Both the position numbers and the translations under genes were made by a program. Positions 2,471 through 57,170 of a stretch of DNA of 64,000 bases are shown one piece after another. The notes below the pieces were generated by a model. It made no database searches and was not told where the DNA came from. It was given only the letters and a program-made list of their open reading frames with translations. Origin of the DNA: Candidatus Woesebacteria bacterium. Lineage in GTDB: Bacteria; Patescibacteriota; Microgenomatia; UBA1400; UBA1396. The stretch covers positions 9,481-73,480 of the forward strand of contig JAJOJK010000003.1 of assembly GCA_021208605.1 (NCBI GenBank), read 5' to 3'. Within the stretch, counting starts at the first letter, position 1, and each line of letters opens with the position of its first letter.

Positions 2471-2578
2471 AGTTAAGAGTATGTCAGAACCATGAGGCGG
2501 ATACAATACAAAGATTACCCAAAGAAAAGTAAAGATTCCGTAAGAATGGCTGATAAAAAACCAGTACAGACAAAAATG

Positions 2579-2740
2579 GTGCGCGCACCAGGACTCACGA
2601 CTGCGCTCATTCCCATTCGCTCCGCATGCACTAGGGTTGTTTCGCATTTCTTCTATTTCGGTATGCTCACCCCGTCGCGAACCGCAGCTTTTCCTCTCCG
2701 CTGTACACACAAAAAAAAACTGGCTTTGCCAGTTTTTTAT
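2579..2740 (-). mobile_element. tRNA-linked ~145-bp element, copy 1
   Basis: Bounded by an exact 18-bp duplication of the tRNA-Ile 3' end (gtgcgcgcaccaggactc at 2579-2596, identical to 2741-2758). Contains an ~85-bp core (2597-2681) 100% identical over ~57 nt to 30306-30356. A bidirectional terminator hairpin (A9-ctggctttgccag-T6) sits at 2712-2740. Confidence 0.6.
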
Positions 2741-2741
2741 G

Positions 2742-2815
2742 TGCGCGCACCAGGACTCGAACCTGGAACCGCGAAGGTATAAGCTTCGTGCTCTAGCCAA
2801 TTGAGCTATGCGCGC
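2742..2815 (-). tRNA. tRNA-Ile (anticodon UAU)
   Basis: Cloverleaf read on the minus strand: GCGCGCA/TGCGCGC acceptor, GCTC-AATTGGCTA-GAGC D arm, CGAAG-CTTATAC-CTTCG anticodon arm (UAU), CCAGG-TTCGAGT-CCTGG T arm, discriminator A. CCA is not encoded. Confidence 0.75.
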
Positions 2816-6846: not shown

Positions 6847-6983
6847 AGGCAGGCTTCTGTTTCAGTATACAGGTTCCTGGGGAGGATCAAAAGAAATGTA
6901 TCGACAACAAACAATGTGTCACTGATATTGCGCCGTAGCGTTTTTGCCTGGTGAAGTCGAGGGTCTTCTCGTATAATACGAGC

Positions 6984-7427
6984 ATGAAGCCACTTCTGGT
7001 CAACAAGAAAGCTCGCTTTGAGTACGAGTTCATCGAAACCCTGACTGCCGGGGTGGTTTTGACGGGCGGCGAAGTCAAAATGCTCCGCAATTCCAAGGGA
7101 AGCTTACAAGGCAGTTTCGTCCGCTTGATTAGCGGTGAGGCTTGGCTCATTAACGCGCAAATCCCACCTTACCCCTACGCTCGCAACGAAGACTACGATC
7201 CGAAACAGTCCCGCAAACTTTTGCTCAAGAAAAAAGAATTGGAACAATTAGCTGCTGTTACTAAAACAAAGGGAATTACTTTGGTTCCAACCATGATTGG
7301 TTTAGATGGCCGATTTATTAAAGTTGAAGTAGCGATTGCCCGCGGTAAAAACGTCCGCGACCGCCGCGAACAGATTCGTCGCCGCGATTTGGAGCGGCAG
7401 ACGGCGCGGGATTTGAAGCAATACTAG
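6984..7427 (+). CDS. smpB: SsrA-binding protein SmpB
   Basis: MKPLLVNKKARFEYEF...GGEVKMLRN...PYPYARNEDYDPKQSRKLLLKKKE is diagnostic for SmpB. The start was moved to M12 of the track ORF 6951..7427. A TATAAT-like box lies at ~6970. Confidence 0.85.
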   Translation: MKPLLVNKKARFEYEFIETLTAGVVLTGGEVKMLRNSKGSLQGSFVRLISGEAWLINAQIPPYPYARNEDYDPKQSRKLLLKKKELEQLAAVTKTKGITLVPTMIGLDGRFIKVEVAIARGKNVRDRREQIRRRDLERQTARDLKQY

Positions 7428-7867: not shown

Positions 7868-8551
7868 TTAATAATTTTGTTGCAGGGTATTGCGTACTTG
7901 AGTAATCGACATCTTTTGGCCATCCAAAAAGAACGTTGGTGTCGAGTTCAAACGAAGCTGTTCAGCAGCCCGCAAGTCTTCTGCTACACGCTCTTTTACG
8001 GCTTGACCGACATAATCGTCTTCAAACTGCTCTCCATCTAAACCAAGCTCTACAGCAAGTCCTAAATAGTACTCACTCGCATCAGTCAACTCAGACCACT
8101 CGGCTTGGCGAGCAAACAAGGCATCGTGCATTTCCCAGAACTTGCCTTGCATGGCGGCGGCCTCGCTGGCCCAGGCTGAACTTTCGGCATTTGGGTGAAT
8201 AGTGCGCAGCGGGTAGTGTCGATATACAAACGCCACGTCAGGATACTCTTCGAGAATACTTGCAATTTGTGGCTCCGTTGCAGCACAAGCTGGACACTGA
8301 AAGTCAGAAAATTCTACCAGCGTGAAACGGGCACTTTCGGTGGCGCCTTTGAGGTGGGGAGTCTCGGTCACCAACTGCGACTGATCACTCACTTCTTGCG
8401 TGGCACCGCTAAAGTCTTGCGAAAGGAAAAAGCCAATTCCAAAAATTAAGACGAGTGTTCCCACAAGTGTGGCGATAAGGAGTTTTACATTTTGCATTCG
8501 TTTCCTTTCTTTCTGGGTTACGTCCTTATAAGTAAGGGACCAACCCTTCAT
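7868..8551 (-). CDS. thioredoxin-fold DsbA-like thiol:disulfide oxidoreductase (membrane-anchored)
   Basis: FSDFQCPACAAT CxxC motif and an N-terminal TM helix. The true start is probably M19 (8497), because the first 11 codons of the track ORF are the translation of the type C repeat. Confidence 0.7.
   Translation of the reverse strand: MKGWSLTYKDVTQKERKRMQNVKLLIATLVGTLVLIFGIGFFLSQDFSGATQEVSDQSQLVTETPHLKGATESARFTLVEFSDFQCPACAATEPQIASILEEYPDVAFVYRHYPLRTIHPNAESSAWASEAAAMQGKFWEMHDALFARQAEWSELTDASEYYLGLAVELGLDGEQFEDDYVGQAVKERVAEDLRAAEQLRLNSTPTFFLDGQKMSITQVRNTLQQNY
8518..8548 (-). repeat. hairpin repeat type C (AGGGTTGGTCCCT + TACTTATAAGGACGTAA) 5' of dsbA-like start
   Basis: The gene-sense strand reads AAGGGTTGGTCCCTTACTTATAAGGACGTAACCC. 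The same module occurs at 33151 and 57140 directly upstream of start codons. Confidence 0.55.
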
Positions 8552-14477: not shown

Positions 14478-14494
14478 GTGAGGGACCGACCCTC
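14478..14494. repeat. REP type A variant (GTGAGGGACCGACCCTC), left arm of inverted pair
   Basis: Perfect 17-nt inverted repeat with 14651-14667. Immediately follows the lysS stop codon. Confidence 0.6.
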
Positions 14495-19036: not shown

Positions 19037-20276
19037 ATGTCTTGGCGCAGTAGCTTTCACGAATTTTCTCGGCATCACGCCCTGCCACAGGAGCTGCGGC
19101 ATTTTTTCTTTGGTATTTTTTTCTACCGTTTAGGTGCCGGTTTGATTTCTTTGACCGGCCCACTGTTCCTTTTTACGATCGGCCAAAACTTTCCCTGGCT
19201 GCAAAATGTGCCTTTGAACACAGTGTCAAAAGGTCTTTTTTTTGTGTTTGCGTCCTATCTTTTGGAACGGTTGTGGATTCTCCTGCTCACCCAACCGATT
19301 GCACGCTGGATTCCCCGCATCGGATTCCATACCAGTATGGTGTTAGGACTCTTATTTTTATCCGCCCGCACTGCGCTGTTTGACTTCTTTTTGCGCGTCC
19401 CGAGTTTATGGCCGTTAGCAATGCTCTTGGCGGCCCTTGGTGTGCAGTTCTTCTGGATTGGATACCACACTTACTTCACTCTGGAAGCAAAAAGTTCGAA
19501 AATTGGCAGTGAAGTGGGCGGCATTGAGTTTATGTCTCGTTTGGCTCAGGTGTTGACCCCACTTCTTGGAGCACTTATTGCCGGCACATTTGGATTCGCC
19601 GTTTCCTTGTGGACCGGTATCGTGCTCTATGGAGTTGCCATTGCTTTCTTACTGCACTTACCGAAACTACAGTCCAAATATTCTTGGCAGTGGAGTGATT
19701 TCTGGCAGTGGCTCACTGACCGTGACCTGCGTCGAACCACCTTGGCCTTAGCTGCGTACACTTGGGAAGAACTTGGCGTCATCGTCTTTTGGCCCATATT
19801 TTTGTTTATTACTTTCGGCAACGTGGAGTCAGTGGGGTATATTTTGTCGACCGCTTCTTTTCTGTCTTTACTGTTTATTTACTTGTCCGGTTGGGTTTTC
19901 GATCACAAGAAAAAAACGTATCGGCAGCATTCAAAAAATGAGCGGTATTCTCCTCAGCTTTTTGTGGATTCCGCGACTCATTTTTGCTGGTTCGCCAGTA
20001 GTGTTGGTGCTAAACGACGCCATTGATCGACTCACACACAGCGTCTATTCAACACTGTTTTATGCGTCCATGCTCTTTTGCGCGCGGGGCAAACATGTCT
20101 ATCGATTTTTTGTAAATCGCCAAGTCGCGATCAGTCTCTTGTGGAGCGTTTTATTGTTGCTGAGCATGGCACTCCTCTTCCTGCACTGGAACTGGATACT
20201 CCTCTTTGCCAGTTTCTTTGGAGCCGGTATGATGAGCTTACTCTTCACCAAAGAAGTCAAAAAACTCAAACTGTAG
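19037..20276 (+). CDS. MFS-type transporter, frameshifted at a poly-A tract
   Basis: Multi-TM protein split between track ORFs 19037..20026 and 19773..20276 (+1). Frames can be joined at A7 (19910-19916) or A6 (19933-19938). Confidence 0.6.
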
Positions 20277-30255: not shown

Positions 30256-30420
30256 AAAAATATTGCAGGCCCACTAGGATTTCACGACTCCGTTCGCTCC
30301 CGCGAACTCCGCATGCACTAGGGTTGTTTCGCATTTCTTCTATTTCGGTATGCTCACCCCGTCGGAACCTTGTAGCTCCCAACCTCTGCGCACCAGCCAA
30401 TAAAAAAACCGCCGATGGCG
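30256..30420 (-). mobile_element. tRNA-linked ~145-bp element, copy 2
   Basis: Exact 18-bp duplication of the tRNA-Trp 3' end (gcaggcccactaggattt at 30255-30272, identical to 30423-30440). Same conserved core (30273-30356) and a terminator hairpin (A7-ccgccgatggcgg-T6) at 30392-30419. Confidence 0.6.
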
Positions 30421-30494
30421 GATTTTTTACTGGCAGGCCCACTAGGATTTGAACCTAGACGAAGGGTTTTGGAGACCCTCATGCTACCGTTACA
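30421..30494 (-). tRNA. tRNA-Trp (anticodon CCA), 3' CCA encoded
   Basis: AGGCTCA/TGGGCCT acceptor (one G-U), anticodon arm AGGGT-CTCCAAA-ACCCT, T arm CTAGG-TTCAAAT-CCTAG, discriminator G then CCA. Confidence 0.8.
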
Positions 30495-30712
30495 TCATGA
30501 GCCTTTGGCTTCGCAGGAGTGTGGCAGCAGTCACAGTACTGCAATCATTTGGCCGGGCACTCGACGCGGAAGTCGTGATCCGTATTGTAACACGCAAGTG
30601 AGAGTTTCAGACAAAACACGGGTGTTCTCTTGACCGCAACACAAAGAGTTTGTTTCAGGACAAACAAAAATGTTTTTAGTGTTTCACTTAATTTGCTTGG
30701 TATACTTAAAAA

Positions 30713-33150: not shown

Positions 33151-33182
33151 TTACGTCCTTATAACAGAGGGTCTGACCCTAT
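33151..33182 (-). repeat. hairpin repeat type C (AGGGTCAGACCCT + CTGTTATAAGGACGTAAGCA) directly 5' of start codon
   Basis: The sense strand reads AGGGTCAGACCCTCTGTTATAAGGACGTAAGCA-ATG. Confidence 0.55.
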
Positions 33183-33606: not shown

Positions 33607-33710
33607 GACGGTAGTATACCTGACGGAGAAAAAAGAGCGCAAACAATCAATATGCTCGACCCCTAGACCTCGTCGCAAACCTCAGTTTTAAACCACATTC
33701 ACTCAAGCAA

Positions 33711-33740: not shown

Positions 33741-33746
33741 AGAAAG

Positions 33747-33829
33747 TGCCGGGTGAAGGATTCGAACCTACGAAGGCGTACGCCAGCAGATTTACAGTCT
33801 GCCCCCGTTGACCGCTTGGGTAACCCGGC
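33747..33829 (-). tRNA. tRNA-Tyr (anticodon GUA), long variable arm
   Basis: GCCGGGT/ACCCGGC acceptor, anticodon arm GCAGA-CTGTAAA-TCTGC, variable arm GGCG-TAC-GCC, T loop TTCGAAT. 83 nt with one T-T mismatch in the T stem. Confidence 0.7.
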
Positions 33830-35268: not shown

Positions 35269-35298
35269 AAAGTCATTGTACTACAATCGAGAACAATC

Positions 35299-48642: not shown

Positions 48643-48664
48643 TAGGCCTAAGGGTCGGTCCCTC
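48643..48664. repeat. REP type A (TAGGCCTA-AGGGTCGGTCCCT-C)
   Basis: Canonical copy. Merges into the 8-bp tandem array. Confidence 0.65.
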
Positions 48665-48765
48665 TCTATCTCTCTATCTCTCTATCTCTCTATCTCTCTA
48701 TCTCTCTATCTCTCTATCTCTCTATCTCTCTATCTCTCTATCTCTCTATTTCTCTATCTCTATAC
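48663..48765. repeat. tandem repeat (TCTCTATC)x~12.9
   Basis: Ten perfect 8-bp units, one variant (TCTCTATT), one more perfect unit and a partial unit. Lies between the rpiB start and the VIT-family stop. Confidence 0.9.
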
Positions 48766-54144: not shown

Positions 54145-55178
54145 TCACTCAAATAAAGAAGGATAGCCTTCCTCGACGGTAGTGATGATGGCTTGCGAAC
54201 GCGTGGCGGCATCTTGAATGAGTTCTTGGTTCATTTCGTCGAGCTCGGAAAAGACGTCGTCGAGCAGAAGCACTGGCAGCTCTTGTCGTTTTTGTTCGAT
54301 GTACTGCACTTCGGATAACTTCCACCAGGCTAACGCGAGGCGTTGTTCACCGCGAGATCCGTAGCGCTCAATATCGCGCCATTCGCTGCCGCGTTTGACT
54401 CTCACGATGACATCGTCTTTGTGGGGACCGACTAAGGTGTAACCCGTGGACAGCTCGGCGCGTTCGTATTTTTTGATGCGTTCTTCGGAAATGATGGAGT
54501 GGTCGTACTCAACTTGGTACTCTTCTTTGAAACCTGGTTGCTGGTCGAGCCAGTGAAGGAACTCTGCTCTGGCCTGGTGGAGTATTTCGCCATTGTCGAT
54601 GAGAAGCTGGTCCCAATAGAAAAAATCTTGGCGTTGTGCTTCGCCTTCTCGCAGTGCTCGTAAAAGACGATTCCGCCGCCGGAGGGCTTTGTCGTAGTTT
54701 TTGCGCGCTCGTCGGTACTCGATGGAAACTTGGTCGAGTAAGGTGTCTAGCAAGTGGCGGCGCGCAGTGCCGCCACTCTGAAACAACTCCATATCTTCTG
54801 GCGTAAACACTACCGTAAGAAGTTGCCCCGTGGCATCGCTGGCTCGACGACTGACACCGTTGACGCGATAGAGACGCTTATTCGTTTTTTTTGCCTTGGA
54901 GAATACCGTGGGTAAAGAGTTGTTCGAGTTTGGTTTCGTCGCCTTTTTTCGTCTTGGAATTTGGCCATGACACGAGCGAGTTCTTCATCCCACTCGATCA
55001 GTTCATCGGTTTGCTTGGCGCGCCAGGATTGGCCGGTGGACAGGAGGGCGAGAGACTCGATGAGGTTGGATTTACCGGAGCCGTTGGGGGCGGTGAAAAC
55101 ATTCAGGCCTGGCTCAAACGACCAGGTGTGGTCGGAGATGTTGCGGAAGTGTTGGAGCCAGAGTCCAGTAATGATCAT
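54145..55178 (-). CDS. recF: DNA replication/repair protein RecF, frameshifted at a T6 tract (plus-strand coordinates)
   Basis: N-terminal Walker A APNGSGKSNLIESL (track ORF 54810..55178) and the remainder (track ORF 54145..54810). The frames join if the T6 at 54944-54949 were T7. Confidence 0.75.
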
Positions 55179-57126: not shown

Positions 57127-57139
57127 GTGTGTCTATTGT

Positions 57140-57170
57140 ACGTCCTTATAAGTGAGGGTTGGGCCCTTGT
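57140..57170 (-). repeat. hairpin repeat type C (AGGGCCCAACCCT + CACTTATAAGGACGTACAA) 5' of lepA
   Basis: The sense strand reads AAGGGCCCAACCCTCACTTATAAGGACGTACAATAGACACAC-ATG. Confidence 0.55.

Follow-up and report, generated by a model that had tools for sequence, protein, structure and literature searches.

Modules with a T-loop-split copy of the adjacent tRNA 3′ end recur behind tRNA genes in a Woesebacteria chromosome and its relatives

Introduction

An end resembling the acceptor/T-arm portion of tRNA is found in several non-decoding RNAs, among them YrlA/Y RNA, mascRNA, plant mitochondrial t-elements and the viral tRNA-like structures (TLS). tRNA genes themselves can be targets: the delocalised crRNA of type V-K CRISPR-associated transposons, as reportedly described by Saito et al. 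in 2021, directs these elements to tRNA genes, and non-canonical T-loop introns of archaeal tRNAs are said, by Sugahara, Fujishima et al., to transpose between tRNA genes in Thermoproteales. For integration into tRNA genes, Williams 2002 reportedly places the crossover in the T-loop. Such integration leaves a complete tRNA together with a displaced 3′ fragment (PMC9897764, citing Reiter 1989 and Williams 2002). Bacterial Y RNAs present a tRNA-like end (PMC4201824).

Here we analysed a stretch of 64 kb, called the window below, which is housekeeping chromosome of an uncultured Candidatus Woesebacteria (CPR, Microgenomates). Like the att repeats of integrative elements, the tRNA-associated repeats of this window consist of a complete tRNA and a 3′ repeat that starts at the T-loop, shortly downstream and on the same strand. 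The sequence between the two repeats is described in the following sections.

Results

Exact 18-bp repeats and an identical core beside two tRNA genes

Exhaustive listing of exact repeats of at least 16 nt in the 64-kb window gave 18-bp repeats at two tRNA genes. At tRNA-Ile the two exact copies of the 18-mer GTGCGCGCACCAGGACTC are at 2579-2596 and 2741-2758 (spacing 162), and a tRNA-Trp 18-mer occurs exactly at 30265-30282 and 30433-30450 (spacing 168). As read from the sequence, both repeats comprise tRNA positions 57-73 and the next base, C74. The chance of an 18-mer recurring less than 200 nt from a given tRNA end was estimated at ~1e-8. The tRNA genes of the window and the proximal repeat copies are:

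2741-2815, minus strand: tRNA-Ile(UAU; tat), ARAGORN and Rfam tRNA (69 bits)
2741-2758, minus strand: proximal repeat copy of tRNA-Ile, the last 18 nt of the gene (57-74)
30431-30504, minus strand: tRNA-Trp(CCA; cca), ARAGORN and Rfam
30433-30450, minus strand: proximal repeat copy of tRNA-Trp, within the gene
33746-33829, minus strand: tRNA-Tyr(GUA), ARAGORN/Rfam

The sequences between the repeats are related. They are identical over 58 nt (2620-2677 and 30307-30364), a match reached by 0 of 100 shuffles, and the whole core region (repeat family D8) shows 89% identity across 83 nt. Thus the exact duplication of the tRNA-Ile 3′ end, the identical core of ~57 nt beside tRNA-Trp and the A-run/hairpin/T-run terminator between the repeats (found by a terminator scan at 2714-2738), all claimed by an earlier note on this DNA, were recovered independently. 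The same note had proposed a common architecture with an 18-bp repeat at two tRNAs; the link to tRNA 3′ ends proved real and recurrent, at five loci in all (see below).

The concern that the duplication could be an assembly artefact was set aside on two grounds. The tRNA-Trp locus is the same, except for one T in a T-run, in two independent MAGs, GCA_021208925.1 and GCA_021208155.1, and Logan short-read contigs (SRR12390694-700) break in the middle of the 58-nt core, as expected of a true repeat with different flanks. This confirmed that repeats and core are genuine. Logan contigs L003, L004, L031 and L032 of these runs start or end at one same mid-core point. Since the 58-nt core fragments assemblies at tRNA loci, tRNA-linked modules may be under-represented in MAGs.

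The distal Ile copy reads ...GCGCGCACCA and the tRNA-Ile gene ...GCGCGCACAT, so that CCA is encoded only in the distal copy, as had been pointed out before. Encoded CCA is absent from the Trp and Thr tails and from the tail of a second Trp module found in a relative (L011): only the Ile tail has it. Independently of the repeat, the tRNA-Ile at 2741-2815 carries a genomically encoded UAU anticodon, which reads the AUA codon. Such tRNAs are uncommon in bacteria, where a lysidine-modified CAU tRNA is usual for AUA.

Each module contains a tRNA 3′ copy split within the T-loop

The module extends over ~135 nt, lies 3′ of the tRNA terminator and has the same strand as its cognate tRNA. Its parts at the two window loci are as follows, in the tRNA-sense direction:

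2714-2738, minus strand: intrinsic, bidirectional terminator of tRNA-Ile (A6, 11-pair stem, T-run), from the terminator scan and the sequence
2684-2710, minus strand: Ile leader, in which GUGUGUA(C) at 2703-2710 is complementary, G.U included, to the acceptor 3′ strand of the tail (folds and cognate-tail tests)
2684-2701, minus strand: predicted hairpin in the Ile leader, 4 bp with an 11-nt loop
2678-2683, minus strand: Ile GGTTCG block, a copy of the end of the tRNA-Ile T-stem and the start of its T-loop, by comparison in tRNA coordinates
2597-2677, minus strand: Ile insert of 81 nt, by sequence comparison, holding the core 2620-2677
2633-2673, minus strand: P1/P2 hairpin within the Ile insert
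2605-2620, minus strand: P3 hairpin within the Ile insert, with a GGGA loop
2596-2602, minus strand: conserved AGTCGTG at the Ile locus, whose last G is the first base of the tail
2577-2596, minus strand: Ile tail, tRNA-Ile 57-74 exact (2579-2596), then CA (reading ACCA), followed by a T-run
30405-30430, minus strand: terminator of tRNA-Trp, from the terminator scan
30265-30401, minus strand: whole Trp module
30371-30401, minus strand: Trp leader
30365-30370, minus strand: Trp AGGTTC block
30283-30364, minus strand: Trp insert of 82 nt, with the identical core at 30307-30364
30320-30360 and 30292-30307, minus strand: Trp P1/P2 and P3, respectively
30265-30282, minus strand: Trp tail

The leaders measure 27-31 nt and begin right after the U-run of the terminator. 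An nnGGTTC(GA) block of 6-9 nt is present in all five units and exactly reproduces the 5′ strand of the T-stem and the beginning of the T-loop in the unit's own tRNA; in tRNA coordinates it ends at most one base from the start of the tail. Block and tail are thus contiguous, and each unit includes ~24 nt copied from the tRNA 3′ region, with an insert separating the two parts within the T-loop. Insert lengths over the five loci are 81, 82, 83 and 78 nt, and 20 nt in L022.

Related modules and a decayed copy at tRNA-Tyr

Relatives were found by pattern scans of contig collections and by walks through neighbouring genes. The architecture recurs at five loci in four genomes: behind tRNA-Ile and tRNA-Trp in the window, behind tRNA-Thr in L020 and L022 and behind tRNA-Trp in L011. 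Each of the five tails is an exact copy of 15-18 nt of the adjacent tRNA, with offsets of 145, 149, 150, 94 and 144. On contig CAYUUK010000009.1 (L019/L020, GCA_964447905.1), a core ~85% identical to that of the window follows tRNA-Thr(CGU), and the tail matches this tRNA over 17 nt, or 26 nt with the following A-run. L022 is a contig related to L020, with the same gene order and an identical tRNA-Thr; its unit is shorter and has an 18-nt tail. In L011, a distant Woesebacteria relative, a unit of 144 nt with a 15-16-nt tail lies behind tRNA-Trp, in gene surroundings similar to those of the window (inositol monophosphatase, tRNA-Tyr, tRNA-Trp). The public title of the L019/L020 record, 'uncultured Pseudomonadales bacterium', looks like a wrong label, since most named homologues of the oxidoreductase encoded there belong to Levybacteria, Daviesbacteria and other Patescibacteria.

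Homology of the L011 and L022 bodies to the window type could not be demonstrated, either by sequence or by covariance model: model R1 did not recover these two modules. Separate, repeated insertions at the same tRNAs may therefore have taken place. Additional matches of R1 in the window looked spurious, the best of them (19324-19438, E = 0.003) lying inside an ORF.

The third tRNA gene of the window is followed by a remnant:

about 33651-33689, minus strand: decayed, tail-less relic of the module 5′ half, 3′ of tRNA-Tyr and its terminator and before the mscL start

Local alignment of the relic to the Ile module scored 33, against a null mean of 18.6, and 2 of 1000 shuffles reached 33. The relic has diverged in a stretch that is invariant among the intact copies. 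Hence all three tRNA genes of the window have, or formerly had, a module.

Copies at a distance from tRNA genes, which would have spoken against the link drawn by the earlier note, were sought throughout the 64-kb window and none was found: it holds two copies and one relic only. Among the related loci, no module lies behind the Gln, Asp and Ser tRNA genes or behind other Tyr genes, and the tRNA-Trp of another relative (L012-L014) has none. Relatives reached through the neighbouring genes P0002, P0003, P0005, P0130 and P0137 were likewise without module. A first pattern scan of the genome contig collection gave no match, and a second gave one real homologue (L019) and one chance match (L018). 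Six pattern matches in metagenome contigs were also dismissed as chance, all being inside coding sequence. Four scans of IMG/VR and blastn against phage and plasmid collections returned no module match. The three open frames of the module gave no match in protein searches at E up to 10.

Tails are kept while bodies diverge

The Ile and Trp copies are mosaic, with 58 identical nt adjoining a terminator and leader that are only ~64% identical. In P3 most stem positions differ between the two copies and pairing is kept. Inter-repeat sequences of syntenic loci are near unalignable, with 41% identity in the Thr pair and 55% in the Trp pair, whereas the tails match at 17 of 18 positions (Thr pair) and 15 of 18 (Trp pair). 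The window Trp tail follows the T-loop variant of its own tRNA (A57). Judged from these comparisons, the pattern would look like that of a constrained structured element tied to its tRNA, unlike that of a uniform recent insertion or of a random deletion remnant. On the other side, perfect identity over 58 nt between paralogues is more typical of recent copying. Under any reading a past mobility or duplication event is needed, because the same insert adjoins Ile, Trp, Thr and Tyr tRNAs.

Leader-tail pairing and predicted structure

The first 24 nt of each leader were compared with 13 tRNA 3′ ends. The cognate tail ranked 2, 2, 1, 1 and 1 in the five modules, and against shuffled tails p values were 0.012-0.15 (Fisher combined 1.5e-4). 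At the Ile locus GUGUGUA pairs with UGCGCGC, 7 of 7 positions in the normal acceptor register, three of them as G.U. A body-by-tail duplex matrix did not discriminate the cognate tails as the leader test did. A candidate 'second anti-tail' in the P3 region was rejected, being without cognate specificity (ranks 8, 3, 1, 8 and 9), as was the idea that the leader is a decayed 5′ half of the cognate tRNA, the similarity being non-specific.

The closing helix formed by leader and tail is predicted in the MFE fold for Ile, L011 and L022 and at +1.2 kcal/mol for Trp, that is, in or near the MFE fold in 4/5 modules; for L020 the closed fold is predicted 10.7 kcal/mol above the MFE. Within the window-type inserts (three sequences), P1 does not vary, and in P2 a C-G pair is replaced by U-A. 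In P3 three pairs are changed on both sides, and two tandem G.A pairs are replaced by Watson-Crick pairs. Overall, 91% of the P1-P3 cells are paired, compared with 18-46% when the partners are slid. Both-sided changes affect 4 of 19 pairs, with 14 of 500 shuffles reaching the observed score, in a comparison of only three sequences. RNAalifold, with three informative sequence types, prefers a different arrangement of the 3′ domain, and whole-module folds are no more stable than those of shuffled sequences.

The GGGA loop and the G.U pairs favour the tRNA-sense strand. The sense and antisense closing helices are about equal in overall stability, so that the module may also exist in a folded single-stranded DNA form, as far as the models go.

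Genomic context of the modules

The window encodes LepA, Lgt, GAPDH, PGK, Rpe, RpiB, Pth, SmpB, an ATP-dependent DNA ligase and a class II aminoacyl-tRNA synthetase (Asp/Lys/Asn type). No integrase, transposase, reverse transcriptase or Cas/TnpB-type protein came up when the larger ORFs of the 64 kb were scanned with Pfam, nor do the genes called in L011, L020 and L022 include an integrase, TnpB, IscB, Cas or transposase. Two adjacent minus-strand ORFs, 54145-54810 and 54810-55178, both match the RecF/RecN/SMC N-terminal domain and may derive from a single gene through a frameshift or an assembly error.

No Rfam 15 family matched the module at gathering score, and matches at E up to 10 were at chance level only. 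The tRNA calls (RF00005, ARAGORN) cover the upstream tRNAs and none falls in the module, of which the 5′ part (leader plus GGTTC block, ~33-38 nt) is too short for a D arm and an anticodon arm. A strong terminator stands immediately upstream of the module, which counts against its being an RNA, and no sigma-70-type promoter-like site was seen at the Ile or the Trp module. Readings of the unit as a hammerhead, a bulge-helix-bulge intron, a primer-binding site or a tag ORF were inspected by eye and dropped.

Other repeats of the window were recorded separately. The palindromic intergenic repeat GAGGGACCGACCCTTAGGCCTA occurs at 14480, 14638, 33881, 44580, 46655, 48637, 51775, 53068 and other positions, and a related palindrome, GGGAGACACCCCTAGGCCTATA, at 35296, 55177 and 55300; both are found in either orientation and often as inverted pairs. 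This family looks like REP-like or shared terminator/operator elements. Adjoining one of these palindromic repeats, at 48662-48765, the 8-mer CTCTCTAT is repeated in tandem, in ~12 copies that are perfect or nearly so. A further motif, TACGTCCTTATAAG, is followed by a short palindrome at 8519-8547, 33152-33180 and 57139-57167. An inverted copy at 2835-2872 shortly precedes tRNA-Ile, and the motif is a candidate promoter or operator specific to the lineage.

Discussion

A proposed tRNA-mimicking RNA tied to its neighbouring tRNA

We lean, tentatively and with slightly less than even confidence, to the reading that the modules are tRNA-derived, tRNA-mimicking structured RNAs tied to their cognate tRNA, with no recent transposon insertion involved. 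As part of this reading we propose that the family is lineage-specific (CPR, Microgenomates/Woesebacteria). Because no sigma-70-type promoter-like site was seen at either module, the RNA would be produced by read-through of the tRNA terminator. It would fold into an acceptor-like closing stem, a small hairpin and a T-arm with a structured insert in its loop. An RNA of such acceptor/T-arm-like shape could then be handled by the tRNA end-processing machinery, with RNase P acting behind the U-tract, followed by 3′ trimming and CCA addition. The product would expose the acceptor/T-arm face of a single tRNA species and might act as a tRNA-specific mimic, whether decoy, regulator or processing element. 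The 58-nt core could have stayed identical in the paralogues through gene conversion or very strong constraint, and copies would be able to decay, as at tRNA-Tyr.

An acceptor-stem mimic at the end of a non-coding RNA had been put forward in the earlier note as the alternative to insertion. Of these two proposals it is now the better supported, and the encoded CCA cited in its favour is a property of one copy only.

Alternative origins

The first proposal of that note was a small mobile module with target duplication. Its link to tRNA 3′ ends stands, and mobile insertion as the explanation fits poorly. In its fullest form, a non-autonomous miniature module would target the tRNA 3′ end or T-loop and duplicate ~18 bp of it, using an enzyme encoded elsewhere or on an episome; we consider this unlikely. 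Such a module would account for exact 18-bp repeats at the same coordinates of two tRNAs around an identical 58-nt core, for its absence from the L012-L014 tRNA-Trp and from Gln, Asp, Ser and other Tyr genes, and for bodies that differ at the same tRNA across lineages, and the decayed tRNA-Tyr copy would fit birth-and-death dynamics. The poor fit arises because the copies are mosaic rather than uniform, with leader and P3 strongly different beside an identical core, and because leader-tail complementarity and the extra GGTTC block of the split ~24-nt copy are left unexplained by target duplication. It also arises because tails are kept where bodies have diverged at syntenic positions, which in distant relatives suggest inheritance, because no recombinase (transposase, integrase) or reverse transcriptase was found among the larger ORFs of the 64 kb, and because the window copies all lie beside tRNAs and are not dispersed. 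Moreover, the repeat length is not fixed (15-16, 17, or 26 with the A-run, and 18), and there are no terminal inverted repeats: the one inverted segment, the leader, pairs with the duplicated target and not with the other end. Nor did IMG/VR, phage or plasmid collections yield a copy.

A further reading, which we hold to be unlikely, would make the modules a new class of bacterial RNA, 'shadow tRNAs', derived from individual tRNAs and kept matched to them, with an intron-like, structured domain of ~80 nt in the T-loop of a truncated copy and a tRNA-specific role for the 57-74 segment. Such an RNA would, for example, be a spare part or template for the repair of T-loop-cut tRNAs, or would act as a decoy where enzymes or toxins recognise the acceptor/T-arm of its tRNA; or it would be a bacterial counterpart of the transposing archaeal T-loop introns.

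To integration followed by loss we attach little probability. The repeats would be attL/attR scars of tyrosine-integrase elements acting at the T-loop, the 145 bp a CIME-like remnant left by deletion, and the tail the displaced original 3′ end. A complete tRNA with a displaced T-loop-to-end fragment is indeed the classic footprint of integration (PMC9897764), the proximal and distal copies diverge just after C74, and in L020 identity runs past the tRNA into the A-run (26 bp). Yet this would require five remnants, all of 94-150 bp, with no integrase or cargo anywhere in the window, L011, L020 or L022, and random deletion would not leave inserts of one same length (78-83 nt) or a conserved, apparently covarying core at different tRNAs. 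The displaced tRNA block is moreover not contiguous, since 78-83 nt (in L022, 20 nt) interrupt it within the T-loop, and an unused attR would decay, whereas tails are intact where bodies have diverged.

Very unlikely, in our estimation, is a neutral pseudo-tRNA, that is, a tandem duplicate that lost an arm, took up junk in its T-loop and is decaying. The module ends match both acceptor strands and part of the T-arm of the neighbouring tRNA, the 27-31-nt leader can be read as roughly a tRNA 5′ part minus one arm, and the tRNA-Tyr relic is of the kind expected. Decaying junk would not place one ~80-nt insert beside Ile, Trp and Thr tRNAs, acquire the apparent compensatory changes in P2 and P3 or keep a perfect tail while the rest diverges, and the similarity of the leader to the cognate tRNA 5′ half is non-specific. 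Finally, a guide RNA with a scaffold ending in AGUCGUR and a 17-18-nt guide to the tRNA gene, serving an RNA-guided nuclease, transposase or recombinase that homes to tRNA genes (like TnpB omega-RNA or the type V-K homing crRNA), would suit the conserved scaffold, the guide-like length and the variable 3′ segment matching a nearby DNA target next to invariant GGTTC, but is highly improbable. Neither the window nor the related loci showed a gene for TnpB, IscB, Cas or a transposase, the 'guide' is predicted to be paired with the leader, and the element, to which no transposon is attached, lies 30 nt away from its own target; conservation of the scaffold does not extend to L011 or L022.

If the modules are expressed, as the tRNA-mimic reading would have it, they would represent an undescribed family of tRNA-derived RNAs in CPR, each tied by sequence to one tRNA species. 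They would offer a handle on tRNA mimicry, end processing or tRNA-targeted conflict in organisms not yet grown alone, and would demonstrate that a structured, transferable insert can be accommodated in bacterial T-loops. If they are scars at the DNA level, their footprint of tRNA-targeted recombination is unusually small and regular, and software for island finding and tRNA annotation should recognise it.

Comparison with known systems

We know of no described counterpart to the regular anatomy of the module. On the strength of its sequence, the module is a real, recurrent and undescribed tRNA-linked element, matched by no described RNA family or mobile element.

Unlike the att repeats of integrative elements, its repeats stand 145 bp apart and not kilobases, and neither integrase nor cargo accompanies them. 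Further differences are the conserved, apparently structured insert of ~80 nt that interrupts the copy within the T-loop, an upstream segment complementary to the copy, and the use of one insert beside tRNAs of different identity. With the type V-K homing crRNA it shares a match of ~17-18 nt to a tRNA gene at the 3′ end of a conserved scaffold. It differs in having no transposon or effector and in a match that is located 145 bp from the target and predicted to be paired internally.

tmRNA is likewise tRNA-derived, with an acceptor stem and a large structured insertion. Homology was tempting, as three 7-8-mers are shared and smpB, the gene of the tmRNA partner protein, is present in the window, and was dropped as unsupported. 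CGACGGG, UGCGAAAC and GUGCAUGC (2620-2683 and 30307-30370) follow one another as they do in E. coli ssrA nt 16-53, a similarity that is at chance level with dinucleotide shuffles (p ~0.05-0.07). No Rfam tmRNA match was obtained at E up to 10, truncated mode included, and ARAGORN reported none; nor did ARAGORN and Rfam find a tmRNA gene across the 64-kb window. The module, unlike tmRNA, has no G3:U70, no consistent tag reading frame and no complete T-arm. The smpB gene itself lies at 6951-7427 (plus strand), and the intergenic gaps flanking it are too short for a tmRNA gene.

The module resembles the archaeal T-loop introns in its near-identical inserts at the same T-loop position of tRNA sequences of different identity. 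In contrast to them, the host is a bacterium, inspection of the module junctions revealed no bulge-helix-bulge, and the 'exons' of the module make no full tRNA, the intact tRNA lying upstream.

The YrlA model scored 13 bits at a module locus (E = 6), mostly overlapping the real tRNA. Like Y RNAs and the other tRNA-like structures, the module is proposed to carry an acceptor/T-arm-like end. Whereas these known structures mimic the tRNA shape generically, the 3′ 18 nt of the module are those of one particular neighbouring tRNA.
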